Below, piece after piece: positions 5,333-63,711 of a stretch of DNA of 64,000 nt (the stretch's first letter is position 1; the number at the start of each line of letters is the position of its first letter). Origin of the DNA: a bacterium. GTDB taxonomy: Bacteria > Patescibacteriota > CPR2 > UBA1875 > JAJYID01. The translations under genes and the position numbers were made by a program. Where the stretch lies: contig JAJYLR010000001.1 of assembly GCA_021787535.1 (NCBI GenBank), positions 147,648 through 211,647 of the forward strand. Reading direction: 5' to 3'. Below the pieces are notes generated by a model, which ran no database searches, was not told where the DNA came from, and saw only the letters and a program-made list of their open reading frames with translations.

Positions 5333-5728
5333 ATGGCGGATATGTATTCAGAAAAAGTAATGGATCATTTTATGAACCCGAGGAATGTCGGAGAGATTAA
5401 AGATGCTTCCGGAGTAGGCGAGAAGGGCAATCCGACCTGCGGGGATATCATGAAAATGTACATCAAGGTTGGCAAGAAAAATGGTAAGGAAATCATTGAG
5501 GATATTAAGTTTCAAACTTTTGGCTGCGGAGCGGCGGTAGCAACCTCTTCCATGATTACAGAAATGGTTAAAGGCAAGACTCTGAAGGAAGCGGAAAAGA
5601 TCTCAAATGCGCAAGTGGCAGAAGCGCTCGGAGGGCTGCCTCCGATAAAGATGCACTGTTCAAACTTGGCAGCAAATGCGCTGCAAGATGCGATAGAGAA
5701 CTATCGTTCTAAAATTTCTAATGCCTAA
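5333..5728 (+). CDS. iscU: Fe-S cluster assembly scaffold IscU/NifU
   Basis: MNPRNVGE...GNPTCGDIMK...FGCGAAVATSS...HCS three conserved Cys plus LPPVK-like motif. Confidence 0.88.
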   Translation: MADMYSEKVMDHFMNPRNVGEIKDASGVGEKGNPTCGDIMKMYIKVGKKNGKEIIEDIKFQTFGCGAAVATSSMITEMVKGKTLKEAEKISNAQVAEALGGLPPIKMHCSNLAANALQDAIENYRSKISNA

Positions 5729-5740
5729 TTAAGAATTTCT

Positions 5741-5844
5741 ATTCAAATCCCAATTCAAAAATTTCTTAAATTAAAAATTGGACATTCATTAGGAATTAGG
5801 AATTCTTAATTTTTAATTGGATTCCCGACTTCTCGGGAATGACA
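5741..5844 (+). repeat. tandem AATT/GGAATT-type octamer array followed by hairpin repeat GGATTCCCGACTTCTCGGGAATGACA
   Basis: compensatory stem variant (CCCG/CGGG instead of CTGG/CCAG). Confidence 0.8.
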
Positions 5845-5941
5845 AGGGAGAATTTGTATTTTTGGCTAATGCTTGACCGGGTAATAAAACTTAAAATATT
5901 TTTGTTTCATTCAGACCATTAAGTGTGGTAATCTAGAAAAT

Positions 5942-6898
5942 ATGAACTGGGTAGATCTGGCAATTATAGCTTTTATTCTATATTTCCTGGTGATGGGGTA
6001 TTTCCAGGGTTTTTTGAAGGGTGCAATAGAACTTGTCGGCTTGGTTTTATCTTTTTTTCTAGCACTGAAACTTTACCCGGGCTTGGCTCAAAGTATCAGC
6101 ACGCACTTTAACGCACCTCTGCCAATCTCAAAAATTTTAGGACTTGTCAGCGTCTGGTTTATCTCGTATCTGGCCTACTATTTTGCTTCAAACTTTGGGC
6201 TAAAGAAAATACCTGATAATATTAAAAACTCCAAATATAACCGTTTTGGCGGCGGAGCGCCCGCCTTGCTGAAGGGTTTGATGGTTACGGCAATTTTACT
6301 GAGTTTGATTTTAATTTTGCCCATTCCGACAAAATATCGAAACGATATTTCCGACTCGAAAATCGGAGGAAGCTTAGTTAAACACAGTGAGCAAGCTCAG
6401 ACATTTTTACAGAAAGAGTTCGGCGGTGCAGTTGATGAAACTCTGACTTTTCTGACTGTTAAAGAGGAAAATGATGAGACAACAAATCTTGGTTTTAAAA
6501 CTGATAAGGTATCTGTTGATTCGTCTAGCGAACAAAGGATGCTGACTCTTGTGAATCAGGAGAGAACTTCCAGAGGATTACATGCTCTTCAAATGGACCC
6601 AAAGCTGCAAGAGGTTGCCAGAGCTCACTGTAAAGATATGTTTAAAAATGGGTATTTTGCCCACAACTCTTTGGATGGCAAAACTCCTTTTGACAGGATG
6701 CATAATGCCGGGATTACTTTTCTTGTTGCCGGAGAAAACTTGGCTCTTGCGCCAAATGTTGATATTGCCCACAACGGACTCATGAATAGTCCCGGCCATC
6801 GTGCCAATATTCTTACTCCCGAGTTTGGAAAAGTCGGCATAGGTGTCATTGATGGCGGAGTTTATGGTAAAATGTTTGCTCAGGAGTTTACAGACTAA
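5942..6898 (+). CDS. CvpA-family membrane domain fused to CAP/SCP (PR-1-like, YkwD-type) domain
   Basis: 4 TM N-terminal CvpA-like region; C-terminal HCKDMFKNGYFAHNS...GENLA...GHRANIL CAP motifs. Confidence 0.55.
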   Translation: MNWVDLAIIAFILYFLVMGYFQGFLKGAIELVGLVLSFFLALKLYPGLAQSISTHFNAPLPISKILGLVSVWFISYLAYYFASNFGLKKIPDNIKNSKYNRFGGGAPALLKGLMVTAILLSLILILPIPTKYRNDISDSKIGGSLVKHSEQAQTFLQKEFGGAVDETLTFLTVKEENDETTNLGFKTDKVSVDSSSEQRMLTLVNQERTSRGLHALQMDPKLQEVARAHCKDMFKNGYFAHNSLDGKTPFDRMHNAGITFLVAGENLALAPNVDIAHNGLMNSPGHRANILTPEFGKVGIGVIDGGVYGKMFAQEFTD

Positions 6899-6912
6899 CC
6901 AAGGGCATATAT

Positions 6913-7485
6913 TTGATTAGAAAACTTTTAAAGCTGGTTTTAATAGTAGTTGTTTTGGCTGTTGTCTTTCTAGCCGGCGCAGCCCTTTATCTCTCGCCGC
7001 AAGACAAGCTGGAAAAAACAGATTGTATAGTAGTGATCTCGGGCGGGGATACTGACGCTAGGCTTGCCGAAGGCATTAAACTTTATAATGAAAAATATGC
7101 GCCGAAAGTTCTATTTTCCGGCGCAGCTGCCGAGGGTACGGTTTCAAACGCTTCAGCAATGAAGAACATAGCTATCCGAAACGGTTTGCCGGCCGGGGAT
7201 ATCTTAATTGAAGAAAATTCTAAAACTACCGAGGAAAATGCCGAGTATACAGGTAAAATCATTCGTGCCGCAAATTTTCACAGCATAATACTCGTAACTT
7301 CTCCGTATCATCAGCGCCGGGCATACGAGGCCTTCAGACAGGCGCTGGGCAGAGATTTTAAAATTATCAATCATTCAGCCACAGATAGGACATGGCGAAA
7401 GGCCGACTGGTGGGACAACTCTCAAGCGAGAATTCTGACAATCGGCGAAATCTTGAAAAATCTATACTTTTTAGTTAATAAGTAA
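6913..7485 (+). CDS. DUF218/YdcF-ElyC family protein
   Basis: TM anchor then IVVISGGDTDARL...LFSGAAAEG...ENSKTTEENAEYT...VTSPYHQRRA typical DUF218; TTG start. Confidence 0.55.
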   Translation: MIRKLLKLVLIVVVLAVVFLAGAALYLSPQDKLEKTDCIVVISGGDTDARLAEGIKLYNEKYAPKVLFSGAAAEGTVSNASAMKNIAIRNGLPAGDILIEENSKTTEENAEYTGKIIRAANFHSIILVTSPYHQRRAYEAFRQALGRDFKIINHSATDRTWRKADWWDNSQARILTIGEILKNLYFLVNK

Positions 7486-7500
7486 TTCTTTTTTGTATAC

Positions 7501-7529
7501 TTGCCACACGATTTTTAAAGGGCTATAAT
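7501..7529 (+). promoter_or_regulatory. sigma70-like promoter for trxA: TTGCCA-17-TATAAT
   Basis: hexamers and 17-nt spacer read from sequence. Confidence 0.5.
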
Positions 7530-7606
7530 AAGTATTGTCTAAAAAATCGGGCTGATTATTAAATAAATAAGCTTTGCATGCGCAGAGTTGTTTGGGAGGA
7601 GAAAAA

Positions 7607-7927
7607 ATGAGTGAGGTAGTTGTGACAGATCAAAACTTTGAAGCAGAAGTGCTCAAAGCAAAAGGCGTGGTAATGGTTGATTTTTGGGCTCCCTGGTGCG
7701 GACCATGCCAAATGGTCGGTCCGATTGTAGCGGAACTTGCGAAAGATTTTGAAGGCAAAGCCAAGGTTGGCAAGCTGAATGTTGATGATAATCCGCAGAC
7801 AGCCGGAAAATACGGAGTGATGAGTATTCCTACTTTGATTATTTTTAAAGACGGGGAAGCTGTCCAGACTTATGTGGGTGTTCAGTCGAAAGAAACCTTA
7901 TCTTCTAAACTTAAATCTTTAGTTTAA
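7607..7927 (+). CDS. trxA: thioredoxin
   Basis: WAPWCGPCQ active site; GGAGG RBS before ATG 7607. Confidence 0.9.
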   Translation: MSEVVVTDQNFEAEVLKAKGVVMVDFWAPWCGPCQMVGPIVAELAKDFEGKAKVGKLNVDDNPQTAGKYGVMSIPTLIIFKDGEAVQTYVGVQSKETLSSKLKSLV

Positions 7928-7948
7928 ATCTGATTCTGATTCGTCCAG

Positions 7949-8004
7949 AATAGTCATCCTGAGAGAAACGAAAGAATCTCTTTCCATGTCACTACTTCGT
8001 GGCC
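7949..8004 (+). repeat. MITE-like variant (GTCATCCTGAGAGAAACGAAAGAATCTCT...)
   Basis: shares GTCATYCTG..GAAACGAAGAATCTCT core with 2211-2276. Confidence 0.6.
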
Positions 8005-8284
8005 ATCATAATTCCTCTACTTTTTTAAAAAAAGTGGAACAAAAATCCCCGACTAGCACTCCGAAATAGATAAAACATAATAAAAATTTATCACTAAAAA
8101 CAATAATCGCTTTGTTTAATCTTGATTTTTCCGGCTTGCGCCGGACGTTCTAAATTTTTAAGTTTTATTAACAACGTAAAGCGAGGGATATAAAAAAGTA
8201 ATCTTTTTTATATCCGAGCTGAGGAGTTAAAACTTTTTGCTACTTCTTCGTGATGTCGGGAAAGAATTGGTATAAAATATTTAT

Positions 8285-9358
8285 ATGAGTAAAGGAAAAA
8301 TACTTGTAGCAATGTCGGGAGGGGTTGACTCCTCTGTGGCCGCTCATTTGCTCAAAAAAGAGGGTTTTGATTGCATAGGTGTTACCATGAAGCTTTTTTG
8401 TTATGCGGGCACCGAAGCATCGCAACGGTCTTGTTGTTCTCTGGAAGCAATTAATGACGCGAGGGCAGTCTGTAAGAAACTTAGTATTCCTCATTATGTT
8501 ATTGACTTTGAAAAAGAGTTTGAACGGGAAGTTATTAAGGATTTTGTCAGTGAATATGAAAAAGGCAGAACACCAAACCCCTGTATCAGATGCAACCAAT
8601 TGATTAAATTCGATTACCTATTGAAAAAAGCAGAGGAACTTGGATGTGATTATCTTGCCACAGGACACTATGCGCAGATAAATCAGGCAACAAATAACAA
8701 TCAACAAATAACATTTAAGCTGCTCAAGGGAGTTGACAGAGTAAAAGACCAAACTTACTTTTTGTACCGATTGAATCAAAAGCAGCTTTCAAAGCTAAAA
8801 TTTCCATTAGGCGGGCTAACAAAGAAAGAGGTTCGCAGAATTGCCGGGGAAGCGGGCCTAAAGACAGCCGAAAAAGCAGAAAGCCAGGAAATCTGTTTCA
8901 TTGATACAAATGTCTCAGAATTTCTCTCAGGAAAAATTAAAATAGAAAAAGGGGATATTTTAGATACTTCCGGCAAAAAGGTCGGGGAACATGAAGGGAT
9001 CCCATTCTACACAATCGGCCAAAGGAAAGGCCTTGGCGGAGGTTTTGCTCATCCAGTGTATGCGGTCGGGATTGATGTTGAGAAAAATCAAGTTATTGTC
9101 GGCGAAGACATAGATTTATATAAGAAAGAAGTTGTGTTTGATAAGACAAGCTGGATAGCTGGTCAGGTGCCGGCTAGCAAGGATTTGTCTGCTGTAATCC
9201 GTTATAACATGGCAGGAAAAGGAGTTGCGGAATTACAGCGGATTAAAGGTTTATATAAAGCTATTTTTAAAGAAAGAGTGCGAGCCGTTACTCCCGGCCA
9301 ATCAATTGTTTTCTATTCGGGCGATGAATGTCTCGGTGGCGGTGTCATTACCAAATAA
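8285..9358 (+). CDS. mnmA: tRNA-specific 2-thiouridylase MnmA
   Basis: PP-loop SGGVDSSVAA, CxxC Cys pairs, full-length 357 aa MnmA architecture. Confidence 0.88.
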   Translation: MSKGKILVAMSGGVDSSVAAHLLKKEGFDCIGVTMKLFCYAGTEASQRSCCSLEAINDARAVCKKLSIPHYVIDFEKEFEREVIKDFVSEYEKGRTPNPCIRCNQLIKFDYLLKKAEELGCDYLATGHYAQINQATNNNQQITFKLLKGVDRVKDQTYFLYRLNQKQLSKLKFPLGGLTKKEVRRIAGEAGLKTAEKAESQEICFIDTNVSEFLSGKIKIEKGDILDTSGKKVGEHEGIPFYTIGQRKGLGGGFAHPVYAVGIDVEKNQVIVGEDIDLYKKEVVFDKTSWIAGQVPASKDLSAVIRYNMAGKGVAELQRIKGLYKAIFKERVRAVTPGQSIVFYSGDECLGGGVITK

Positions 9359-10648: not shown

Positions 10649-12613
10649 ATGAATTCAAATAAACTAAGGCAAAAATTTCTGAAATTTTTTGAGGAGAAGG
10701 GGCACAAGGTTATCTCTTCAGCTTCGCTCGTGCCTGAAAACGACCCCTCGGTGCTTTTTACAACCGCCGGCATGCATCCGCTCGTGCCATATCTCATGGG
10801 TGAGAAACATCCGCTTGGGAAGAGATTAGTTGACATTCAGAAGTGTATTCGCACCGGTGACATCGACGAGGTTGGCGATATTCAGCACATGACATTCTTT
10901 GAGATGCTTGGCTACTGGTCGCTTGGCGATTACTTTAAAAAAGAATCCATTCACTACACCTATGATTTTTATACAAAAGTTCTGGGCATTGACGGCGATA
11001 AAATCTCTGTGACGGTGTTTAAAGGAGATAATGACGCACCGTTTGACCAAGAGTCGTATGACACTTGGAAAGCAATTGGTATTCCTGAAGATAGAATATA
11101 TAAATATCCTAAAAAAGAAAACTGGTGGGGGCCGGTCACAGATACGGGACCGTGCGGACCTTGCACTGAAATGTTTATCGATACCGGACTAGAATCCTGT
11201 GGGCCGGACTGCGGACCTTCGTGCAACTGCGATAAATTCGTCGAAATAGGCAACAACGTTTTCATGGAATATTTCAAAAACCACGAAGGGAAGTTCGAGA
11301 AGCTGGAGCAGAAAAATGTCGATGTCGGACTTGGCTTTGAACGGCTGGTAATGATTGTGAATGAGCTCGATACCGTATTTGAGACGGATCTTTTCACCGG
11401 TATTATCGGGAAAATTAAAGAGCTGGCTTCTCCTTCTGTCATTCCCGCGCAGGCGGGAATCCAGACGGAATCTAAGGAAAATTCCATCCGTGTAATCGCC
11501 GACCATATGCGGGCGGCAACGATGGCGATAGCGGATGAGGTAGAGCCGTCTAATCTGGATAGGGGTTATGTGGTTCGCAGGTTGATCCGTCGCTCTATCC
11601 GTCACGGAAGACTTATCGGAATTGAGGGCAAATTTACGGCAGAAATAGCCAAAGAAGTAGTGAAGTCACTAGGCGATGTCTATCCTGAACTTAAAGATAA
11701 TGAAGAATTTATTTACTCGGAACTTGATAAGGAAGAGGAGAAGTTTAATGACCTAATCATTAAAATAAAACCTAAGGAGAATAAAAGAGTAGAAATAAGA
11801 AAAAGGCTAGAAAAAGAAATCATAGATGCTGATAAAAAATGGATACTCGATGATACAAAAGTTGCTGGTATCAAATTTGATGACTTGAACGAGGAATATC
11901 AGAAGAGCCCAAGAAAATTCGTTACAACTGTTTCTGGGGCGATGGCCTTTAGGATGGAAACCACACATGGTTGGCCCAGTGATTTGTATTTTGAAGATAT
12001 TGCCGAGAAATTGATTAGTGAAGAACCAAGTAAAAGTATTACTATCGAAAAAAAAATTAGTGAAGAAAAAAAGGCGTATGAAGAGTTTGTAAAAAAGCAC
12101 CAGGAATTATCCAGAAAAGGCGCCGAGAAAAAGTTTAAAGGCGGGCTTGGTGAGGTTTCTGAGAAAACCATTAAATATCACACGGCTACTCATTTATTGC
12201 ACGAGGCGCTCAGACAGGTGCTTGGCAATCACGTCTACCAGAAAGGGTCGAATATTACAGCAGAAAGAATGCGGTTTGACTTTACCCATCCGGACAAAAT
12301 GACCGATGAAGAAAAAAAGAAGGTCGAAGATATTGTAAACGAACAGATTCAGGCCAAGTTACCGGTTATTGAAACCATTACGACCGTGGAAGAGGCGAAA
12401 GGTGAGGGAGCGATCGGACTTTTTGAAGCCAAATACGGAGAAAAAGTGAAAGTTTACTCGATCGGCGGGCCACTCGATTCGCCTGATGCATTTTCCAAGG
12501 AAATCTGTGGCGGCCCGCATGTCAAAAACACCGGCGAACTCGGCCATTTCAGGATTAAAAAAGAGGAATCAAGTTCTAAGGGAGTAAGGCGCATTAAAGC
12601 CGTTTTGGAGTAA
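10649..12613 (+). CDS. alaS: alanyl-tRNA synthetase (short form lacking C-Ala domain)
   Basis: class II AlaRS catalytic core (FTTAGM, GDIDEVG) and editing domain HxxxH (HTATHLLHEALR), CGGPHV; 654 aa; contains in-frame palindromic repeat at 11438-11466. Confidence 0.9.
   Translation: MNSNKLRQKFLKFFEEKGHKVISSASLVPENDPSVLFTTAGMHPLVPYLMGEKHPLGKRLVDIQKCIRTGDIDEVGDIQHMTFFEMLGYWSLGDYFKKESIHYTYDFYTKVLGIDGDKISVTVFKGDNDAPFDQESYDTWKAIGIPEDRIYKYPKKENWWGPVTDTGPCGPCTEMFIDTGLESCGPDCGPSCNCDKFVEIGNNVFMEYFKNHEGKFEKLEQKNVDVGLGFERLVMIVNELDTVFETDLFTGIIGKIKELASPSVIPAQAGIQTESKENSIRVIADHMRAATMAIADEVEPSNLDRGYVVRRLIRRSIRHGRLIGIEGKFTAEIAKEVVKSLGDVYPELKDNEEFIYSELDKEEEKFNDLIIKIKPKENKRVEIRKRLEKEIIDADKKWILDDTKVAGIKFDDLNEEYQKSPRKFVTTVSGAMAFRMETTHGWPSDLYFEDIAEKLISEEPSKSITIEKKISEEKKAYEEFVKKHQELSRKGAEKKFKGGLGEVSEKTIKYHTATHLLHEALRQVLGNHVYQKGSNITAERMRFDFTHPDKMTDEEKKKVEDIVNEQIQAKLPVIETITTVEEAKGEGAIGLFEAKYGEKVKVYSIGGPLDSPDAFSKEICGGPHVKNTGELGHFRIKKEESSSKGVRRIKAVLE
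11438..11466 (-). repeat. hairpin repeat inserted in frame in alaS (reverse orientation; encodes VIPAQAGIQ)
   Basis: GTCATTCCCGCGCAGGCGGGAATCCAG = reverse complement of CTGGATTCCCGC...GCGGGAATGAC family consensus. Confidence 0.75.
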
Positions 12614-23044: not shown

Positions 23045-25957
23045 ATGAGTAACAAATATGATCATAAAAAAATAGAATCCAAGTGGCGCGATATTTGGGA
23101 GAAAGCCGGTCTTAACCGGACTGATTTAAAGTCAGTCAAACCCAAACACTACAATCTCGTCATGTTTCCGTATCCGAGCGCTGAGTATATCCATCTCGGC
23201 CATATTTACTCTTACTCCGGAGCTGATGTTTATGGGCGATACCAGAGATTGAAAGGCAAAAATGTCTTTGAGCCGATCGGTTTTGATTCATTTGGCCTGC
23301 CGGCTGAAAACTTTGCTATAAAAAAAGGCATTCATCCGGAAAAGGTGATTGATCATGCAATCGATCAATCTACGAGACAGCTGAAAGAAGCCGGCTTTAT
23401 GTTCGACTGGTTCCGGGAAGTGATCACTTCAAAGCCGGATTACTACAAATGGACTCAGTTGCTTTTCTTAAAACTATATGATCAAGGGTTGGCATATCGG
23501 AAAGAAGCGCCGGTGAATTGGTGCCCGAGCTGCAAGACGGTTTTGGCAAATGAACAGGTGAAAGATGGTTTGTGCGACCGTTGTGACACTGAGGTTGTAC
23601 AAAAGGAAATGAAGCAATGGTTTTTCAAAGTAACCGATTACGCCGAGAGATTGATAAAAGACTTGGACAAAGTTGACTGGCCTGAATCGTCGAAAATTAA
23701 ACAAAGGAACTGGATCGGCAGAAGTGAGGGTGTGGAGATGGATATGCAGATTACAGACTCTAAAGAAAAGTTTTCGGTATTTACCACTCGCATTGATACG
23801 GTTTACGGCATGACATATGTGGTGCTGGCACCGGAACATCCATTAGTTAATAAAATCACGACTGACAAACAGAAGAAAGAAGTTGAAAAGTACAAGATTC
23901 AGGCGCAGAAACAGACAGAGATCGAGAGGCAGTCGCTCGAAAAGGATAAAACAGGGGTATTTACAGGATCGTATGCTATAAATCCGTTTACCGGTGAGAA
24001 GGTGCCCATTTGGATAGCTGATTATGTACTTTTTGGTTATGGAACCGGTGCTGTGATGGCGGTACCGGCTCACGATGAGCGCGACTTCGAATTTGCCAAA
24101 AAGTACAAGCTTCCTATTATCCAGTCTATTGCGCCTCATAGTGTGGATACAAAAAATCCTCCGAGAAAAGGTAAAACAGATACTAGAAGAAAAGTAGTAC
24201 ATGTGATTTTGGAAAATGATAAGGGCGAGGTACTTACTTTAAATCTCAAGGGTCAGGAATGGGGTGATAATAAGCCCAAAACACTCATCATCGGCGGTAT
24301 AGAAGATAGGGAATCTCCGGAAGAAGCCGCCATGCGGGAGATCGAGGAAGAAACCGGTTACACAGATGTCCAGATTTCAGAGGTTTACCCGATTGAATTT
24401 CATGCTGAGTTTTTTGCCGCCCATAAAGATGTTAATCGTTATGTAGAAACAGTGGGTGTTTTCTGTCAACTGAAGTCTGAGAAAAAAGTTCCTGTCAGTG
24501 AAAATGAAAAGAAGCTGCATGAAATTATCTGGGTTAAGAAAAAAAATCTTCTTTCTTCCGTAACCATCCCTGACGATATTTTTCTAGCGAAAGCTTATGT
24601 AGAAAAAATTGGCAGCTACACTGAATATGGTGTACTTATCAATTCTGGCAAGTTCACCGGCCTTATCTACGAAGAAGCTAAAAAGAAAATGGCTGATTGG
24701 CTGGAGAAGAAAGGCATTGGCTCTCGCAAAATTAATTACCGTCTTCATGATTGGTCTATTGGACGACAAAGATACTGGGGAGCGCCGATACCGATCATTC
24801 ATTGCGACAAATGCGGGGTAGTGCCGGTTCCGGAGAAAGATTTGCCGGTTAAACTGCCGGAAAATATCAAAGATTTCCGGCCGAAAGGGACGGGGAAAGG
24901 TCCTTTGGCTAGCGTATCTGAATTTGTAAACGTAAAATGTCCAAGATGCGGAGGTAAAGCAGAGCGAGAAACTGATACCATGGATACTTTTGTCGACTCC
25001 AGCTTTTATTTCCTTCGTTATCCGAGTACGGGGGATGATACTCAAATGATGGAGCCAAAGGTTACCAAAAAATGGCTGCCTGTTGATATGTATGTCGGTG
25101 GTGCTGAACATGTAACCATGCATTTGCTTTATGCCAGATTTATCACGAAGGCCTTACATGATGCCAAACTGATTACTTTTGATGAGCCATTTATGAAGCT
25201 TCGCCATCAGGGATATATTTTGGGTCCGGATGGTAAAAAGATGTCTAAGTCAAAGGGCAATGTTGTTAATCCGGACGGCGTTGTCAAAGAGCATGGAGCG
25301 GACGCTTTCAGAACCTACATACTCTTTATGGCTCGGTTTGAAGACGGCGGTCCGTGGAACCCCAAAGGTTTAGTCGGTGTCAGCCGATTTCTGGAAAAGA
25401 TTTGGAGAATTGGAATTGGGTTGGATTCCCGTCTGCACGGGAATGACAATAAGGGTAATTGGCCGGACGTGTCTAGCACAGAGGTGCAGGCAAAACTTGC
25501 CAGAACTATCAAAAAGGTTGGGGAAGATATTGAGAGCTTTAAATTTAATACAGCCGTAGCTTCGCTTATGACGCTTATGAATGGCATCTCAGTTGAGAAA
25601 AGACCAGATGAAGATTGGATTAGTAAAGGAGACTTTGAAAAACTTCTGATTATTCTTGCGCCGTTTGCGCCATTTATAACCGAAGAACTTTGGGAAAAGC
25701 TTGGTAACAAGGATAGTATTCATGTAGAGAAGTGGCCGGCTTATGATGAAAAACTGATCCAGGAAGAGGCGGTGACAATCGCTGTACAGGTTAACGGCAA
25801 AGTCCGCGATCAGCTGGTTGTGAATGTCGATAGTGCAAAAGACGAAGTTTTTGAACTGGCAAAGGCAAGTGAGAAGGTGCAGAAGTATTTGTTAGATAAA
25901 GAGGTTAAAAAGGTTATCTATATCGAAGGTAAGCTACTTAGTCTTGTCGTGAACTAG
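23045..25957 (+). CDS. leuS: leucyl-tRNA synthetase with internal Nudix-domain insertion
   Basis: HIGH (HLGH), TTRIDT, AVPAHDERD, KMSKS; ~165-aa insertion (aa ~363-528) containing perfect Nudix box GGIEDRESPEEAAMREIEEETGY; second small in-frame palindromic-repeat insertion at 25423-25448. Confidence 0.9.
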   Translation: MSNKYDHKKIESKWRDIWEKAGLNRTDLKSVKPKHYNLVMFPYPSAEYIHLGHIYSYSGADVYGRYQRLKGKNVFEPIGFDSFGLPAENFAIKKGIHPEKVIDHAIDQSTRQLKEAGFMFDWFREVITSKPDYYKWTQLLFLKLYDQGLAYRKEAPVNWCPSCKTVLANEQVKDGLCDRCDTEVVQKEMKQWFFKVTDYAERLIKDLDKVDWPESSKIKQRNWIGRSEGVEMDMQITDSKEKFSVFTTRIDTVYGMTYVVLAPEHPLVNKITTDKQKKEVEKYKIQAQKQTEIERQSLEKDKTGVFTGSYAINPFTGEKVPIWIADYVLFGYGTGAVMAVPAHDERDFEFAKKYKLPIIQSIAPHSVDTKNPPRKGKTDTRRKVVHVILENDKGEVLTLNLKGQEWGDNKPKTLIIGGIEDRESPEEAAMREIEEETGYTDVQISEVYPIEFHAEFFAAHKDVNRYVETVGVFCQLKSEKKVPVSENEKKLHEIIWVKKKNLLSSVTIPDDIFLAKAYVEKIGSYTEYGVLINSGKFTGLIYEEAKKKMADWLEKKGIGSRKINYRLHDWSIGRQRYWGAPIPIIHCDKCGVVPVPEKDLPVKLPENIKDFRPKGTGKGPLASVSEFVNVKCPRCGGKAERETDTMDTFVDSSFYFLRYPSTGDDTQMMEPKVTKKWLPVDMYVGGAEHVTMHLLYARFITKALHDAKLITFDEPFMKLRHQGYILGPDGKKMSKSKGNVVNPDGVVKEHGADAFRTYILFMARFEDGGPWNPKGLVGVSRFLEKIWRIGIGLDSRLHGNDNKGNWPDVSSTEVQAKLARTIKKVGEDIESFKFNTAVASLMTLMNGISVEKRPDEDWISKGDFEKLLIILAPFAPFITEELWEKLGNKDSIHVEKWPAYDEKLIQEEAVTIAVQVNGKVRDQLVVNVDSAKDEVFELAKASEKVQKYLLDKEVKKVIYIEGKLLSLVVN
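25411..25448 (+). repeat. octamer (GAATTGGAATTGGG) plus hairpin repeat GGATTCCCGTCTGCACGGGAATGACA inserted in frame in leuS (encodes ...LDSRLHGNDNK)
   Basis: same family as intergenic copies. Confidence 0.75.
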
Positions 25958-54754: not shown

Positions 54755-54843
54755 GCTGCGGTGGCGGAATTGGTAGACGCGCTGGCTTGAGGGGCCAGTG
54801 GCCCGAAACGGCCGTGGAGGTTCAAGTCCTCTCCGCAGCACCA
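54755..54843 (+). tRNA. tRNA-Leu (anticodon GAG)
   Basis: hand-folded cloverleaf: acceptor GCTGCGG/CCGCAGC, anticodon loop TTGAGGG, long variable arm, GGTTCAAGTCC T-arm, encoded CCA. Confidence 0.85.
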
Positions 54844-56156: not shown

Positions 56157-56384
56157 GTGATGGTAGTGATGGTAATGAAGAAAGGAACGAAGGTGGTAAC
56201 ATTTTTCAAAGAGGAGGATCTGAGCGAGATGAGAGACGCCGGTCTCACTGATGGTATGAAAGGAGTGATCATCAGTGACCCGATACCTGCCCATAAAGGG
56301 AGCTCATTTCGTGTTCGTTGCGAGAATGGGATCGAAATAAAGCTTCATGAATCTCACTTGCAGCTAACATCAGCGGACGGGTAG
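56157..56384 (+). CDS. hypothetical 75-aa protein
   Basis: GGAGTG RBS; ends exactly at tRNA-Val start. Confidence 0.25.
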   Translation: MMVVMVMKKGTKVVTFFKEEDLSEMRDAGLTDGMKGVIISDPIPAHKGSSFRVRCENGIEIKLHESHLQLTSADG

Positions 56385-56461
56385 CTTAACTGGCTAAAGT
56401 GCCGGCTCGACATGCCGGAAATTGAAGGTTCAAATCCTTTCCCGTCCGCCAACATTTGAGG
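56385..56461 (+). tRNA. tRNA-Val (anticodon GAC; unusual C33)
   Basis: hand-folded: acceptor GGACGGG/CCCGTCC, anticodon stem CCGGC/GCCGG loop TCGACAT, T-arm GAAGGTTCAAATCCTTT, encoded CCA. Confidence 0.7.
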
Positions 56462-56485
56462 GGATTTATCCTCTCTTGCAGAGAC

Positions 56486-56560
56486 TGCTCCAGTAGCTTA
56501 ACTGGTAAAACGTCGGGTCGTTATTTGAAGGTTACCAGTTCAAATCTTACCTTGGGCAGG
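56486..56560 (+). pseudogene. degenerate tRNA-like duplicate (pseudo-tRNA)
   Basis: shares GTAGCTTAACTGG.TAAA and GAAGGTT...CAAATC with adjacent tRNA-Val but T-arm and anticodon stem do not pair; 7-nt ACCAGTT insertion. Confidence 0.3.
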
Positions 56561-56645
56561 CAATTTATCTGGGCGTCCGCGAATCTTGGGCGCCCATTTT
56601 TCTTTTACAAATTCAGATCTTATAGTATAATATTTCAGTATTTTT

Positions 56646-56722
56646 GGGCGCTTAGCTCAGCTGGCTAGAGCGACTGGTTTACACCCAGTAGGTCGAGGGT
56701 TCGAGTCCCCCAGCGCCCACCA
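56646..56722 (+). tRNA. tRNA-Val (anticodon TAC)
   Basis: acceptor GGGCGCT/AGCGCCC, D-arm GCTCAGCTGGCTAGAGC, anticodon loop TTTACAC, T-loop TTCGAGT, CCA. Confidence 0.85.
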
Positions 56723-56750
56723 TAGAAAATTTCGCTGAAAATATTGAAAA

Positions 56751-56837
56751 GCCGCGGTGGCGGAACTGGTAGACGCGCTGGCTTCAGGTGCCAGTGAAAG
56801 CAATTTCGTGGAGGTTCGAGTCCTCTCCGCGGCACCA
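56751..56837 (+). tRNA. tRNA-Leu (anticodon CAG)
   Basis: acceptor GCCGCGG/CCGCGGC, anticodon loop TTCAGGT, long variable arm, CCA; paralogous to tRNA-Leu(GAG) at 54755. Confidence 0.85.
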
Positions 56838-59382: not shown

Positions 59383-61116
59383 TTGAAAGAGAACAAGATG
59401 GAAATTAAGACTATGAGACACAGCTTCAGTCATGTCTTGGCTGCGGCAGTGCTTGATATGTTCCCGGAAGCCAAGCTCGGCATGGGTCCGGCTGTAGAAA
59501 ACGGATTTTACTATGATTTTGACCTGCCAAGGACTTTGATTCCTGAGGATTTGCCGATCCTTGAGAAAAAAATGAGGCGGATTATAAAGAAAAACGAGAA
59601 GTTTGAACGTGCTGATGTCTCTATCAAGGAAGCTCTCGAGATTTCCAAGAAGTCGAAGCAGACTTACAAAACCGAGTTAATTAAAGATCTCGAAAAAGCC
59701 GGCGAGAAAACAGTATCGTTCTACAAAACCGGCAAGTTCATTGACCTTTGCGCCGGTCCGCATGTCGTCTCCACAAATCAGCTGGGCGCTTTCAAGCTCT
59801 CACACATTTCCGGCGCATACTGGAAAGGCGATGAGAAAAATAAAATGCTTCAGCGCATCTACGGCTATGCGTTTGCCACCCAGAAAGAATTGGATGAATT
59901 TTTGGTAAATTTAGAAGAAGCCAAGAAAAGGGATCATAGAAAGATTGGCAAAGAAATGGACCTTTTTTCATTTCACAGTGAGGCACCGGGAATGGTATTC
60001 TGGCACCCAAAGGGCATGATCCTAAGAGAAGCTCTTATGGAACCTCACAAAAAACTTCATGATGAAGAGGGTTATGAGACAGTTTCTACTCCTATCATGC
60101 TTTCTGAAAAACTCTGGCATAGATCAGGCCACTGGGATAACTATAAGGATGAAATGTATTTTTCCAAAGTTGATAATGCCAAATTTGCCATAAAACCAAT
60201 GAACTGCCCCGGCTCAATCCTCATTTATAGCACTTATCCCAGATCTTACAGAGAGTTTCCGATGCGGCTTTATGAAAACGGAGAGATCCATCGCCATGAA
60301 CTATCCGGAACATTGCACGGACTTTTTAGAGTCAGGGCTTTCCGCCAGGATGATGCGCATATCTATCTTTTACCGGATCAAATAGAAAACGAAATTCAAA
60401 AAATAGTAAAGTTAACGCTGGATTTCTATAAAATGTGCGGGTTTGAAGAAGTAAGTATTGAAGTTTCAACCAGACCGGAAAAATCAATCGGATCCGATGA
60501 AATCTGGGAAAAGTCAGAAAGCATCTTGAAGAAAACCTTGAAAGACATGGGCTTAAAATATCAAATCAACGAAGGCGACGGCGCTTTTTACGGACCAAAA
60601 ATAGATTTTCATATCAAAGACTCTTTAGGGCGTTCCTGGCAATGCGGAACCACCCAGCTTGATTTCTCTATGCCGGAGAGATTTGATCTTAAATATATCG
60701 ACAAAGACGGCAAACTGAAACACCCCGTGATGATACATAGAACTGTAATCGGTTCGATTCAAAGATTCATTGGCGTTTTGATAGAACACTACGGCGGACA
60801 CTTTCCTCTCTGGCTGGCTCCGGTTCAGGTGAAAATAATTCCGGTTTCCGATAAGTTCGAAAAATTTGCCAGAAAAGTCGAGGCAGAATTGAAGTCTGCA
60901 GATTCGCGGGTAGAGTTTGACTCATCCGATGAATCGGTCGGCAAGAAAATCCGAAATGCCGAGCTTGAAAAAATTCCATACATGCTGATACTCGGCGAGA
61001 AGGAAGAAAAAGCCGGCAAGGTCGCCGTTCGCTCGCATAAAAAAGGCGACGAAGGCCAAATAGAACTCAAGAAACTGATCTCAAATCTCAAAAAAGAAAT
61101 TAACGAGAAGAAATGA
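59383..61116 (+). CDS. thrS: threonyl-tRNA synthetase (lacks N-terminal TGS domain)
   Basis: N2 editing-domain HxxxH (HSFSHVLA), class II motifs, anticodon-binding domain; start TTG 59383 or ATG 59398. Confidence 0.9.
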   Translation: MKENKMEIKTMRHSFSHVLAAAVLDMFPEAKLGMGPAVENGFYYDFDLPRTLIPEDLPILEKKMRRIIKKNEKFERADVSIKEALEISKKSKQTYKTELIKDLEKAGEKTVSFYKTGKFIDLCAGPHVVSTNQLGAFKLSHISGAYWKGDEKNKMLQRIYGYAFATQKELDEFLVNLEEAKKRDHRKIGKEMDLFSFHSEAPGMVFWHPKGMILREALMEPHKKLHDEEGYETVSTPIMLSEKLWHRSGHWDNYKDEMYFSKVDNAKFAIKPMNCPGSILIYSTYPRSYREFPMRLYENGEIHRHELSGTLHGLFRVRAFRQDDAHIYLLPDQIENEIQKIVKLTLDFYKMCGFEEVSIEVSTRPEKSIGSDEIWEKSESILKKTLKDMGLKYQINEGDGAFYGPKIDFHIKDSLGRSWQCGTTQLDFSMPERFDLKYIDKDGKLKHPVMIHRTVIGSIQRFIGVLIEHYGGHFPLWLAPVQVKIIPVSDKFEKFARKVEAELKSADSRVEFDSSDESVGKKIRNAELEKIPYMLILGEKEEKAGKVAVRSHKKGDEGQIELKKLISNLKKEINEKK

Positions 61117-62036
61117 CGCAGAAAAGCAAGAAGATTATTGCTATAGACATCGGCGGGACAAATATACGGATAGGTCTTGTTGATTCACTTGGTAATCTTG
61201 AGAAAAATACCAAGTTAGACAAGCCCGACATCAGCCAGGTTCCAGATTTGATAATTTCAACAATCAAGGATTTGTTTACCAAATCAGAACTGGAAAACAC
61301 CTCCTGTATCGCAGTCAGTACAGCCGGCCGAGTCGACAATGAAAAAGGATTAATAGAATGCCCGACTATAGGCAAGGGTGTATTACCGCTTGGCAGAGAC
61401 TTAAAAGAAGTATTTGGGAAAGAAGTTATCTTAATCAATGATGCGAATGTGGCGGCATACGGTGAGTACTCTAAAATAAAAGATAAGACTCAAAACCTGG
61501 TTTATGTAACAATTTCGACAGGAATCGGCGGAGGTGCCATAGTAGACGGTTACTTAATCCAAAACAACGCAGTAGAAATAGGACATATCGTTGTCAAAGA
61601 AGAGGATTATAAACTTTTTTGCAATTACGGACATGAAAATTGCTGGGAGGCATTTGCATCAGGCAATGGCATCCCCCATTTTTTCAAAGCATGGGCAAAA
61701 AAACAAAAAATTACCGCAGAAAACTATTCAGCCGCTGGAGAGATATTTGAGGCAGCCAAAAAGGGCGGACAAACAGAAAAGAAATTTCTTGAAAAACTGG
61801 GAGAATATAATAGCCGAGGCATTAGCATGATTATGGCAGCTTATAATCCTGACATAATTGTAATAGGCGGGTCTGTCGTGCGCCATAATAAAAATGAAAT
61901 TTTAAAACCGATGATGAAAAATATTCAAGAAATTTATAAATTACCTCAAATTATAGTGACTGAATCCGGCGACGAAGTTTGTCTTCTAGGTGCCGCCCAA
62001 TATGCTTTTGATAATTTAGTTAAGGAGAAAAAATGA
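61113..62036 (+). CDS. ROK-family sugar kinase (glucokinase/N-acetylglucosamine kinase-like)
   Basis: IAIDIGGTNIRIGLVD ATP motif; Cys/His zinc motif CNYGHENCWEAFASG. Confidence 0.75.
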   Translation: MTQKSKKIIAIDIGGTNIRIGLVDSLGNLEKNTKLDKPDISQVPDLIISTIKDLFTKSELENTSCIAVSTAGRVDNEKGLIECPTIGKGVLPLGRDLKEVFGKEVILINDANVAAYGEYSKIKDKTQNLVYVTISTGIGGGAIVDGYLIQNNAVEIGHIVVKEEDYKLFCNYGHENCWEAFASGNGIPHFFKAWAKKQKITAENYSAAGEIFEAAKKGGQTEKKFLEKLGEYNSRGISMIMAAYNPDIIVIGGSVVRHNKNEILKPMMKNIQEIYKLPQIIVTESGDEVCLLGAAQYAFDNLVKEKK

Positions 62037-62542
62037 GCAAGGAACAGCTTTTTGATCTAGTAGCCACTGCCATTATTCTAAAGGAGCCATTTGAGTCAGG
62101 CGCCAAGCCCAGATATTTGATTACTCAGCGCTCCGATGACGAAGAAACCTTTCCGGGACTTTGGACGGTTCCCGGTGGACATCTGGACGCGGAAGATATC
62201 ACAGCATTTCCAAAACAGACTGAGATTTACTGGTATAATTGCTTAGAGCGAGCCCTCAGACGCGAGGTAAAAGAAGAGTGCAATCTCAAAATTAAAAATA
62301 TCTGGTACCTGACATCGCTTGTTCGTTTGAAAGATGATGGACACGGCTCTATGGTTATCTCCTTCGTCGCTGACAACGCAGGCGGAAAAGTTGAAATCGG
62401 CGAAGATATGCAGGATTTTGCTTGGGTAACTTATGAGGAAGCTAAAAATTACAAACTATTCGACGGCATTTTAGAAGAATTCTATATGATTGAGAGAAAA
62501 CTAGCCGGTGAATGTGATGTTGAATGGGAAAGGATTAAATAA
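62033..62542 (+). CDS. Nudix-like hydrolase (box with insertion)
   Basis: GGHLDAE... RREVKEECNL partial Nudix box separated by ~20-aa insert. Confidence 0.45.
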   Translation: MSKEQLFDLVATAIILKEPFESGAKPRYLITQRSDDEETFPGLWTVPGGHLDAEDITAFPKQTEIYWYNCLERALRREVKEECNLKIKNIWYLTSLVRLKDDGHGSMVISFVADNAGGKVEIGEDMQDFAWVTYEEAKNYKLFDGILEEFYMIERKLAGECDVEWERIK

Positions 62543-63711
62543 TGCAAGATCCTATAGAAATGCATGAAAAACTGCGGGGCAAAATCATCATCAGCTCGAA
62601 AATCGAGCTAAACGAGGAGACTCTTCCTGTTGCCTATACTCCGGGCGTCGCCAAGGCGTCCGACGCCATCGCCAAAGACAAATCGCAGGTCAATCTCTTA
62701 ACCGGCAGACAAAACACCGTGCCGGTTGTTTCCGACGGCAGCGCGGTGCTGGGACTTGGCAACGTCGGTCCCGAGGCCGCCATGCCGGTAATGGAGGGTA
62801 AAGCGGCCATTTTCGCCCAGTTTGCCGGAGTCAATGCCGTGCCGATTTGTCTCGATACTCAAGACACCGAGGAAATTATTAAAATTGTGAAAGCTATGGC
62901 ACCCTCCTTTGGCGGGATTAATCTGGAGGACATCTCGGCGCCCCGCTGTTTTGAAATTGAAAAAAGATTAACCGAAGAGCTCGATATCCCGGTCTTTCAT
63001 GACGACCAGCACGGCACCGCCATCGTCGTTTTGGCGGGTTTAATAAATGCCTTAAAGGTAGTCGGCAAAGACAAAGGTGTAAAAATCGTCATCTCCGGCG
63101 CCGGTGCCGCCGGGATTGCCATTGCCAATCTCCTTTTTCATTATGGTTTTGAAAACCTATGCCTGTGCGACTCCCAAGGAATAGTCAGTAAAGAAAGAAA
63201 GGATTTAAGCGAGCATAAGAAAAATATAGTAGGAAGAGGCACTTCTCCCTGCAAGGAAGGCAGTTGCAATCTGGCGCTTAAAGGCGCGGATGTCTTGATC
63301 GGCGTATCAAAGCCGGGACAGTTTACCGCAGAAGATATAAAGACAATGAATCCCAACCCAATAGTTTTCGCCATGGCAAACCCTATCCCGGAGATTATGC
63401 CGGATGAAGCTCGAAAAGGCGGTGCGAGAGTAGTGGCAACCGGCCGAAGCGATTTTCCAAATCAGATTAATAATGCGCTCGTTTTCCCCGGCCTTTTTCG
63501 CGGACTTTTAGACAATGGCATTTCTAATGTAACTTCGGAAATTAAGGTAGCAGTGGCCGAAGCTATTGCGGCAATGATAGAAAAACCGACAACAGAGAAA
63601 ATTATCCCGTCAATTTTCGATCAAAGTCTAGTTCCCATAATCGCAAACTCTATGAAAGATTTTGATAAAAGTGGTAAAAGAAAGGTAAAATCAAATGTCC
63701 ATACCGCCTGA
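62542..63711 (+). CDS. NAD(P)-dependent malic enzyme (short form)
   Basis: LPVAYTPGVA, malic-enzyme NAD-binding GAGAAGIAIA, 389 aa. Confidence 0.85.
   Translation: MQDPIEMHEKLRGKIIISSKIELNEETLPVAYTPGVAKASDAIAKDKSQVNLLTGRQNTVPVVSDGSAVLGLGNVGPEAAMPVMEGKAAIFAQFAGVNAVPICLDTQDTEEIIKIVKAMAPSFGGINLEDISAPRCFEIEKRLTEELDIPVFHDDQHGTAIVVLAGLINALKVVGKDKGVKIVISGAGAAGIAIANLLFHYGFENLCLCDSQGIVSKERKDLSEHKKNIVGRGTSPCKEGSCNLALKGADVLIGVSKPGQFTAEDIKTMNPNPIVFAMANPIPEIMPDEARKGGARVVATGRSDFPNQINNALVFPGLFRGLLDNGISNVTSEIKVAVAEAIAAMIEKPTTEKIIPSIFDQSLVPIIANSMKDFDKSGKRKVKSNVHTA

Follow-up and report, generated by a model that had tools for sequence, protein, structure and literature searches.

A predicted Nudix hydrolase domain inside the editing domain of leucyl-tRNA synthetase in Patescibacteria

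Introduction

Leucyl-tRNA synthetase (LeuRS) is among the best studied of all enzymes, and its editing domain, connective peptide 1 (CP1), is a drug target (of the benzoxaboroles). The 64,000-nucleotide stretch of DNA analyzed here (referred to as the window; positions 147,648 to 211,647 of contig JAJYLR010000001.1, from a bacterium of the Patescibacteriota) encodes a LeuRS in which a Nudix hydrolase domain is predicted to lie inside CP1. A reading of the DNA that used no database searches (the sequence-only reading) first drew attention to the arrangement and took it to be a domain insertion rather than a fusion artefact. It named a profile search of the excised segment, a structure prediction for the full-length protein and a survey of LeuRS from related genomes as ways of checking that interpretation. 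The results of all three are described below. They leave us very nearly certain that the insert is a real, conserved and, to judge from its residues, catalytically competent Nudix domain in a functional LeuRS.

The host gene

The LeuRS gene is complete and forms a single open frame; its features are collected in Table 1. Over its whole length the protein reaches 1012 bits on TIGR00396, the model of bacterial LeuRS (leuS_bact; cut-off 548.4), with the match split into two stretches by the insert, and Pfam finds in the open reading frame (ORF) tRNA-synt_1, tRNA-synt_1_2, Anticodon_1 and, at 232.8 bits, the editing domain PF13603. The AlphaFold2 model of the full-length protein (predicted local distance difference test score, pLDDT, 91.9; predicted template-modelling score, pTM, 0.83) superimposes on the solved LeuRS of Thermus thermophilus, Escherichia coli and Neisseria gonorrhoeae with target-normalised TM scores of up to 0.86.

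The sequence-only reading held that the HLGH, TTRIDT and KMSKS motifs on either side of the insert are intact, and all of them are indeed found at their expected positions. Among 90 LeuRS relatives, H50 and G52 of the class I signature are invariant and H53 is at least 90% conserved; in the KMSKS loop, S734 and K735 are invariant and K732 and M733 at least 90% conserved. H50, G52, S734 and K735 vary little or not at all in relatives both with and without the insert. The editing site is equally well preserved: T247, T248, D251 and T252 of the threonine-rich motif are invariant in relatives with and without the insert, as are H343, D344, R346 and D347 of the AHDERD block in the set of 90. On the evidence of alignment and of what is established about LeuRS, we take that block to hold the aspartate equivalent to the universally conserved editing Asp (D345 in E. 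coli, D347 in T. thermophilus). On the other side of the insert, G529 and S534 of the remainder of CP1 are also invariant among the relatives. The insertion leaves the synthetic-site and editing-site motifs of the enzyme untouched.

One part of the canonical bacterial enzyme is missing. In the alignment to the T. thermophilus structure (1h3n), residues 727-732 of the window protein (nucleotides 25223-25240) correspond to residues 579-637, so that approximately 57 residues, the leucine-specific domain, are absent. This domain is present in the LeuRS of E. coli and T. thermophilus but is not universal, and its absence does not exclude membership of the LeuRS family. Profile matches, motifs and predicted structure together identify the host protein as the housekeeping, bacterial-type LeuRS of a bacterium of the Patescibacteria (or Candidate Phyla Radiation, CPR).

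Table 1. Features of the LeuRS gene and of its insert, in window coordinates
Feature	Nucleotides	Strand	Residues	Basis
LeuRS gene hosting the insertion, complete, 970 aa + stop	23045-25957	+		single open frame
HIGH signature (HLGH), class I catalytic site	23192-23203	+	50-53	sequence position
CP1 editing domain, N-terminal three quarters, 5' of insert	23705-24130	+	221-362	PF13603 and T. thermophilus alignment
Threonine-rich editing-site motif TTRIDT	23783-23800	+	247-252	sequence position
AVPAHDERDFEFAKKY block	24059-24106		339-354	
AHDERD editing-site block	24068-24085	+	342-347	sequence position
Nudix domain insert, in place of a 13-aa CP1 surface loop	24131-24613	+	363-523	alignment to 1h3n
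Nudix box GGIEDRESPEEAAMREIEEETGY	24293-24361	+	417-439	every position fits GX5EX7REUXEEXGU
X-loop motif FFAAHKDVNR, family-specific	24410-24439	+	456-465	column counts over 87 sequences
CP1 editing domain, C-terminal rest, 3' of insert	24614-24724	+	524 to ~560	alignment resumes at window 524 = T. thermophilus 376
GVLINSGKF	24629-24655		529-537	
KMSKS loop, catalytic site	25238-25252	+	732-736	sequence position

The inserted domain

The window protein is collinear with T. thermophilus LeuRS on both sides of the insert, with residues 3-362 matching residues 2-362 of the T. thermophilus protein and residues 524-727 matching 376-579. The net insertion is therefore of approximately 161 residues, against a loop of 13 (363-375) in T. 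thermophilus. The sequence-only reading had located the Nudix domain at nucleotides 24131-24628 (residues 363-528), between the AVPAHDERDFEFAKKY block and GVLINSGKF; these coordinates are correct, and the alignment trims the net insertion at its 3' side. The match to the editing-domain profile PF13603 (residues 221-370) ends at position 148 of the profile's 185, just ahead of the insert, which places the insert inside CP1 and not between domains (the T. thermophilus editing domain extends from approximately residue 224 to 417). The alignment, in short, puts the Nudix domain in a peripheral loop of CP1, directly after the block with the conserved editing Asp.

That the insert belongs to the Nudix superfamily is not in doubt at the level of profiles: the excised segment (24131-24628) scores 54.7 bits on Pfam NUDIX (PF00293; E 1.4e-14, gathering cut-off 21.1), and the match within the full LeuRS covers residues 381-502 at 50.6 bits. 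The box, described in the sequence-only reading as a textbook case, justifies the description at each of its positions (G417-x5-E423-x7-R431-E432-I433-E434-E435-E436-T437-G438-Y439). E423, R431, E432, E435 and E436 are the predicted metal-binding and catalytic residues, and the X-loop motif downstream of the box is the likely substrate-specificity element.

The insert is predicted to take the Nudix fold, an alpha/beta/alpha sandwich, both when modelled alone and in the full-length LeuRS, and model confidence at its two junctions with CP1 is high (pLDDT 92-95). Its closest structural neighbour is the uncharacterised MutT/nudix protein of Enterococcus faecalis (2azw), followed by a decapping effector, ADP-sugar hydrolases and NudI. 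Taken together, the sequence and structure neighbours in the PDB mix MutT-like, dinucleoside polyphosphate (ApnA), ADP-sugar, NudI, NudB, Dcp2/RppH and fungal effector Nudix proteins.

Distribution and conservation

The insert is widespread. With the full protein as query, the matches include an identical sequence on a contig of 636 kb and dozens of LeuRS of 940-1007 residues, 46-76% identical, that carry a precomputed PF00293 tag. The insert-bearing LeuRS come from NCBI, ENA, JGI and Logan assemblies, on contigs of up to 720 kb, and the relatives that have names are labelled 'class I tRNA ligase family protein' and come from Patescibacteria, Parcubacteria, Moranbacteria, Nomurabacteria or Paceibacterota. 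The counts that follow rest on the best 120 full-length LeuRS matches, aligned with MAFFT. In 87 of these, an insert of 139-178 residues occupies the identical site; the other 33 have a loop of 21-46 residues there. The survey of related LeuRS bears out the sequence-only reading.

A scan of one genome per GTDB species (with a 241-residue query consisting of the insert and its flanks) yields full-length, insert-inclusive matches in approximately 30 species. The insert-bearing taxa are the Moran-, Berkel-, Komeili-, Taylor-, Magasanik-, Falkow- and Nomurabacteria, the Saccharibacteria, the Gracilibacteria and the 'Patescibacteria group'. In other phyla, the same scan finds LeuRS matches to the flanks only and none to the insert. 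Three Gracilibacteria loci (L019, L022 and L028, near position 3200 in each; L and P numbers are our identifiers for loci and proteins) show in-frame UGA at glycine positions of the Nudix box when read with table 11, for example as 'G*IEE*ETELE'. This is consistent with genetic code 25, in which UGA specifies Gly, and provides an independent check on the Gracilibacteria inserts. Bacterial-type LeuRS also turn up in metagenome-assembled genomes labelled Woesearchaeota or Pacearchaeota: three of these loci (L017, L020, L027) have the insert, and for a fourth (L040) the short match suggests that it does not. Either these are mis-binned CPR contigs or the genes have been transferred between CPR bacteria and DPANN archaea.

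Within the 87 inserts the Nudix box is kept to a striking degree. In 81 of them REUXEE is complete, and 86 retain the ExxEE glutamates. An alignment of 45 sequences shows no variation at G, R, E, E, E and G of the box, and most inserts that miss the strict pattern do so only by having Gx4E in place of Gx5E. Degenerate boxes are confined to six proteins (P0014, P0066, P0068, P0070, P0074 and P0088). The inserts as a whole are, at a mean pairwise identity of 33%, far more divergent than the LeuRS core (56%). An intact REUXEE in 81 of 87 sequences at that level of identity implies that the box is held by selection while the rest of the insert drifts. Since all catalytic residues of the box are kept across LeuRS that have diverged to approximately 46% identity, the insert almost certainly has enzymatic activity rather than being a relic.

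These numbers also bear on the proposal that the domain is non-catalytic, a structural, docking or ligand-sensing module that modulates LeuRS or its protein contacts. There is a precedent in the NrtR-type Nudix domains, which only bind ADP-ribose. Six of the 87 LeuRS have lost the box Arg or more and nevertheless keep the domain, and the confident modelling of both CP1 junctions would suit a module of that kind. Conservation of REUXEE and ExxEE amid such divergence is, in contrast, the signature of selection on catalysis, and makes a purely non-catalytic role very unlikely.

The recurrence of the architecture likewise speaks to the question of whether it might have arisen by chimeric assembly, through a frameshift or an annotation error, or as a selfish element of the intein type. 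The base composition of the insert does differ somewhat from that of the rest of the gene, with GC at third codon positions (GC3) of 0.34 against 0.46 and overall GC of 0.40 against 0.44. The lower GC3 could reflect amino-acid composition or relaxed codon selection, and recent transfer of the insert seems unlikely because it is so widely conserved. Weighing against an artefact, the insert is in frame and contains no stops, a sliding-window profile shows no break of composition at the junctions, and the same architecture recurs in at least 87 independent sequences of different assemblies and sources and in many CPR lineages, including ones with a different genetic code. Chimeric assembly is rejected on account of the unbroken composition and the wide independent recurrence; an intein or mobile element is rejected because NUDIX is all that Pfam finds in residues 363-523, with no Hint, intein or homing-endonuclease domain, and because the fold is plain Nudix. 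Explanations of this kind we consider exceedingly improbable. The case for a domain insertion stands on its being in frame and at the same site in at least 87 independent LeuRS and in approximately 30 GTDB species.

A profile of the insert, run with HMMER against 1.84 billion representative proteins, finds 188 clusters (at 50% identity) with E≤1e-30 and 776 with E≤1e-10. The matches fall into three groups: LeuRS, full-length or fragmentary, that have the insert in the CP1 loop; LeuRS in which a second or third copy lies at another site, just before CP1; and free-standing proteins of 160-200 residues.

A Nudix family associated with aminoacyl-tRNA synthetases

Downstream of the box, the inserts share the motif F[YF]AAHKDxNR. 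Counted from the last residue of the box over the 87 sequences, position +17 is F in 59 and Y in 24, +18 is Y in 40 and F in 37, +21 is H in 65, +22 is K in all 87, +25 is N in 79 and +26 is R in 69. The invariant lysine is K461 of the window protein. With this motif and its lysine, the alignments define a Nudix family distinct from others, to which the window insert belongs.

The gene neighbourhoods of ten free-standing representatives of the family were examined; nine are informative (the contigs with P0266, approximately 1 kb in length, are not). In four of the nine, the Nudix gene directly abuts a gene for an aminoacyl-tRNA synthetase (aaRS). P0270 lies 13 bp after ArgRS, just 5' of an IleRS with a His_Phos_1 insertion; P0282 is directly 5' of ThrRS and MiaA; P0162 is 1 bp before a LeuRS that itself bears the Nudix insert; and P0202 precedes by 3 bp a LeuRS with an uninterrupted editing domain (PF13603 1-185 of 185; L096:3001-4853, L097:492-3217). 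A conserved pair, YchF-DUF5671, precedes P0202 and its LeuRS and also, in another metagenome, a pair made up of a Nudix gene and a Nudix-bearing LeuRS. P0202 with its insert-less LeuRS is a natural split version of the window protein. Its sequence shares 34% identity with the window insert, a level like that among the inserts themselves, and matches it with a probability of 100% (E 6e-41) in profile-profile comparison with hhalign.

The remaining five informative contexts are without an abutting aaRS gene. P0209 (L098:1533-2084) is one gene upstream of a class II ProRS (L098:2762-4693) that has a Nudix domain of its own (residues 418-515) between its anticodon-binding and C-terminal domains. 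P0209 is 37% identical to that domain, which matches the window insert at 100% probability (E 5e-45) in the hhalign comparison. P0194 lies 4 bp after Fpg/MutM (the 8-oxoG glycosylase), and P0286, P0235 and P0250 have no aaRS neighbour. One free-standing member is near RNase Y, and others are near nucleotide-kinase-like genes and PRPP (phosphoribosyl pyrophosphate) synthetase. The JGI label 'MutT (NUDIX family)' on free-standing relatives is generic.

Adjacency in four of nine contexts has a binomial probability of approximately 1e-3, or 7e-3 if the two syntenic LeuRS cases are merged, on a rough chance rate of approximately 5% for 600-1000 genes and with kinship ignored. From these neighbourhoods, a functional link between the family and aaRS in general seems probable, if by no means secure. 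The ProRS-Nudix form is rare (only five clusters, in a small clade). The nearest insert-less relatives of these ProRS are labelled Nanoarchaeota or Woesearchaeota, and for that reason the family probably extends to the DPANN archaea. As a separate observation, the IleRS-like class I synthetase with the His_Phos_1 insert (tRNA-synt_1, Anticodon_1, DUF5915; L081-L083, approximately 5386-8498) is found a few genes after ArgRS and P0270.

The breadth of these associations tells against one of the two functions proposed in the sequence-only reading, namely hydrolysis of misactivated adenylates (in LeuRS, of leucyl-adenylate). As an additional pre-transfer proofreading step in LeuRS, acting for example on Nva-AMP or Ile-AMP, such an activity would be well placed, since LeuRS has to discriminate against near-cognate amino acids and the Nudix domain, its catalytic residues conserved, sits in the domain devoted to editing. 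However, aminoacyl-adenylates are mixed anhydrides (carboxyl-phosphate) of a nucleoside monophosphate and do not belong to the nucleoside diphosphate-X compounds; no Nudix enzyme is known to hydrolyze them, whereas enzymes of the HIT family do so. Full conservation of the canonical post-transfer site leaves no deficit of editing to be filled, and the family is not leucine-specific, standing alone beside ArgRS and ThrRS and inserted in ProRS. The chemistry, the intact editing site and the lack of LeuRS specificity together make adenylate hydrolysis a poor candidate, to which we assign very little probability. The other proposal, hydrolysis of compounds of the diadenosine tetraphosphate (Ap4A) type, remains plausible and is taken up below.

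An RNA-directed activity deserves separate mention. The domain might be an RppH/Dcp2-like pyrophosphohydrolase or decapping module that removes 5'-triphosphate, NAD or Np4 caps from tRNA held by the synthetase or from mRNAs. The 5' end of tRNA adjoins the 3' end, which enters CP1. The best NCBIfam matches of the insert and of six stand-alone members, albeit sub-threshold, are to RppH models, Dcp2 chains are among the PDB sequence matches of the insert, and stand-alone members occur beside MiaA (P0282) and near RNase Y. These RppH scores nevertheless fall 4- to 10-fold under the thresholds for membership (30.7 bits for the insert against 118 for PRK00714; 20-31 for the stand-alone members against 116-259). 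ApnA hydrolases and RppH are, moreover, close relatives, so that matches to RppH do not discriminate between them. Nor do the insertion points in LeuRS (the CP1 loop) and ProRS share any position relative to the tRNA. We therefore think a role at RNA 5' ends improbable, although less so than adenylate hydrolysis.

Other hydrolase domains in related LeuRS

Nudix is not the only domain to have lodged in these synthetases. Relatives of the window LeuRS contain an ASCH domain (P0044), serine or alpha/beta-hydrolases (P0071, P0098, P0125, P0132), Ham1/ITPase (P0144), a HAD phosphatase (P0185) and a PD-(D/E)XK nuclease (P0148), and two or three Nudix copies occur in P0057, P0098, P0121, P0122 and P0131. 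Most of the extra domains sit at a second site just before CP1, or between the catalytic core and the anticodon-binding domain. By domain content, then, patescibacterial LeuRS is a hot spot at which hydrolase domains have been inserted. The variety of the inserts implies a scaffold that tolerates passengers, several of which are classical enzymes of nucleotide house-cleaning.

This opens the way to the closest rival of the reading that we favour. The Nudix domain might be a MutT/MTH1-like sanitiser of non-canonical or damaged nucleotides (8-oxo-(d)GTP or 2-OH-ATP, for example) that has found lodging in permissive loops of large, constitutively expressed synthetases in genome-reduced, nucleotide-scavenging CPR and DPANN organisms. 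Its connection with LeuRS would then be loose, amounting at most to the protection of an ATP-using enzyme. The varied company of Ham1/ITPase, HAD, serine hydrolase, ASCH, PD-(D/E)XK and supernumerary Nudix domains is what one might expect on that account, as is the His_Phos_1 domain inserted in the IleRS beside stand-alone P0270. The location of P0194 after Fpg/MutM and of other stand-alone members near nucleotide-kinase-like genes and PRPP synthetase points the same way, Bacillus halodurans MutT and AtNUDX1 are among the sequence matches over the full length, and the patchy presence of the insert (14 parsimony changes among 120 sequences) suits a dispensable passenger.

There are difficulties with it, all the same. 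The MutT models TIGR00586 and PRK10776 are matched far under their cut-offs (18.7 against 97.9 bits and 19.9 against 148). Mere hitch-hiking leaves unexplained the free copies of one Nudix family that abut aaRS genes (four specificities in all), or that stand, as P0209 does, one gene away from a ProRS with a Nudix domain of its own. Nor does it account for the independent insertion in ProRS being of the same family and not of some other Nudix. House-cleaning in the genome to which the window belongs could already be covered by an unrelated stand-alone Nudix protein. Sanitising of NTPs is a close competitor of the ApnA reading and a tentative one.

History of the insert

In a neighbour-joining tree of the LeuRS core (120 sequences), the presence of the insert requires approximately 14 changes, with one pure clade of 53, and divergence of the core and of the insert is only weakly correlated (r 0.32). 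The corresponding tree for the Nudix family intermingles free-standing, CP1-loop, pre-CP1 and ProRS copies, with the ProRS copies nearest free-standing ones and the pre-CP1 copies nearest each other or CP1-loop copies. There are hints here of repeated loss or capture of the insert. The history that these trees tell (the 14 gains or losses and the interleaving) is tentative, because distances are near saturation (approximately 1.5). A Nudix gene next to a LeuRS gene is plausible as an intermediate of insertion.

Function of the insert

The reading that we favour, to which we give a probability of approximately 0.35, is that the substrates of the insert are dinucleoside polyphosphates of the ApnA type. 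The domain would be a tethered nucleotide clean-up enzyme for the chemistry of the synthetase itself. Mg2+ or Mn2+ would be bound by E432, E435 and E436, and a pyrophosphate bond cleaved in a compound of the nucleoside-diphosphate-X kind. The preferred substrates would be the dinucleoside polyphosphates (Ap4A, Ap3A, Ap4N) that arise on synthetases when ATP or some other nucleotide attacks the bound aminoacyl-adenylate. In tiny genomes, insertion would hold the degrading activity in fixed stoichiometry with the synthetase that produces its substrate.

Synthetases are the main cellular source of Ap4A. The residues of the X-loop provide a second line of argument: the H, K and R conserved after its aromatic pair are suited to a long polyphosphate chain. 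By a published rule (Dunn et al. 1999, summarised by Srouji et al. 2017, PMC5389931), specificity is set by the X-loop, approximately 17 residues past the Nudix box, and a Tyr at that place goes together with hydrolysis of ApnA. Positions +17 and +18 in the window copy are F456 and F457; the family is always aromatic here, with Tyr in only part of the 87 sequences. It is the combination of the aromatic X-loop, the production of Ap4A by synthetases and the attachment of the family to synthetases of four or five specificities that inclines us to ApnA.

Several observations weigh against this choice. The X-loop pair of the window copy is Phe-Phe and not Tyr. In NCBIfam, the insert attains the cut-off of no curated subfamily and has no match specific to ApnA, the best being RppH at approximately 31 bits against cut-offs of at least 116. 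The structural neighbours are mixed and headed by the uncharacterised 2azw. ArgRS, one of the neighbouring synthetases, is to our knowledge not classically a producer of Ap4A. Five of the nine stand-alone contexts lack an adjacent aaRS, and the one by Fpg/MutM points to the sanitising of oxidised nucleotides. Finally, the Ham1/ITPase and HAD domains of related LeuRS fit general NTP house-cleaning better than turnover of ApnA.

There is also a broader and tentative possibility. The aaRS of ultra-small symbiotic prokaryotes (CPR bacteria and probably DPANN archaea) might serve as scaffolds for a distributed nucleotide hygiene, in which a dedicated Nudix family, lodged in LeuRS or ProRS or co-transcribed with LeuRS, ArgRS or ThrRS, would destroy by-products of adenylyl transfer such as Ap4A/Np4N, or aberrant ATP analogues, at the site of their production or use. 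Such a system would constitute a hitherto unrecognised layer of quality control over aminoacylation, distinct from the editing of amino acids.

Comparison with known systems

With the bacterial LeuRS of known structure (T. thermophilus 1h3n/2bte, E. coli 4aq7/4arc and N. gonorrhoeae 6q89), the window protein has in common the HIGH/KMSKS core, a CP1 with its threonine-rich motif and Asp, the Zn-binding module and the anticodon-binding and C-terminal domains. It differs from them in having a 161-residue Nudix domain in place of the 13-residue loop (363-375 in T. thermophilus) and in lacking the leucine-specific domain (approximately 580-636 in T. thermophilus).

Compared with the Nudix superfamily at large (PF00293), the insert is set apart by being embedded in another enzyme, by an X-loop motif of its own and by reaching no curated subfamily. 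The closest solved Nudix structure, E. faecalis 2azw, is 17% identical and has no assigned substrate. The ApnA hydrolases (lupin 1f3y, Aquifex 3i7u, T. thermophilus Ndx1 1vc8 and Mycobacterium tuberculosis Rv2985 9cxx) and RppH share with the insert the fold and the box; where ApnA hydrolases have a Tyr in the X-loop, the insert has an aromatic residue, followed by basic ones. They are among its best structural and sequence matches, and ApnA substrates are by-products of aaRS. The window copy departs from the ApnA hydrolases in having Phe-Phe rather than Tyr, and none of those solved enzymes is fused to a synthetase.

Extra catalytic domains within synthetases do have precedents, in the GNAT-containing IleRS (NF040702, a curated 'exception' model) and the INS/YbaK-type editing insertion of ProRS. 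These domains have acetyltransferase or aminoacyl-tRNA deacylase folds, however, and not that of Nudix. In the NadM-Nudix (NMNAT-Nudix) fusion, a nucleotidyltransferase with a HIGH motif is joined to an ADP-ribose pyrophosphatase (PMC7824862). This is likewise an adenylyl-transferring enzyme of the HIGH superfamily, physically linked to a Nudix domain that breaks down a nucleotide produced in the pathway of that enzyme, and the model PRK05379 is a weak match of the family described here. It differs in being an end-to-end fusion, in the Nudix subfamily (ADP-ribose, with a Pro signature) and in the host enzyme.

The sequence-only reading had been aware of no described aaRS with an internal Nudix domain, and we have found none in the literature. 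In the open-access full text of PMC and bioRxiv, no publication describing Nudix in an aaRS was found (a description elsewhere is possible), and the 2017 survey of the Nudix clan (PMC5389931) mentions neither tRNA synthetase nor tRNA ligase. As far as has been checked, the Nudix-LeuRS architecture is undescribed rather than unseen, since it is common in public metagenome data, where it is automatically tagged PF00293. The same holds, to the extent checked, for the aaRS-associated Nudix family as a whole.

CP1 thus houses a second and unrelated catalytic domain that is conserved over a large portion of the bacterial tree and has apparently escaped description. If the domain does act on by-products such as Ap4A, it offers a testable handle on the role of alarmone-like molecules and on the coupling of their levels to translation. 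If it is a sanitiser instead, it would illustrate the way in which house-cleaning enzymes are packed into the essential proteins of genome-reduced symbionts. The split and fused forms that occur in nature (Nudix beside an insert-less LeuRS, as opposed to the inserted form) would serve as ready controls. There are also consequences for annotation: pipelines demote these LeuRS to 'class I tRNA ligase family protein', and F[YF]AAHKDxNR defines a Nudix family that can be curated.

Other features of the window

The window contains a second, stand-alone Nudix gene, at 62033-62542, which the sequence-only reading had listed as Nudix-like. It is a true Nudix (PF00293, 44.8 bits) but of a different family from the insert; as donor or paralogue of the insert it is rejected (BLASTP E 0.7; hhalign probability 11%). 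Its box is unusual, the Gly being separated from the REVKEE helix by approximately 16 additional residues (GGHLDAEDITAFPKQTEIYWYNCLERALRREVKEEC). The gene is one of four that overlap or abut head to tail between 59383 and 63711: ThrRS (59383-61116), a 307-residue protein (61113-62036) that looks, by motif only, ROK/glucokinase-like, the Nudix gene itself and a 389-residue ORF (62542-63711).

All 23 ORFs of at least 300 residues in the window are on the + strand, an extreme coding-strand bias over 64 kb, and cumulative GC skew climbs steadily across 21-28 kb. AlaRS (10649-12613) is only 654 residues in length, with catalytic and tRNA_SAD editing domains and nothing after the SAD, and so appears, from its domain content, to be without the usual C-terminal C-Ala region. 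Two genes for tRNA-Leu (GAG, CAG) and two for tRNA-Val (GAC, TAC) are located at 54755-54843 and 56375-56837, three of the four within 460 bp.

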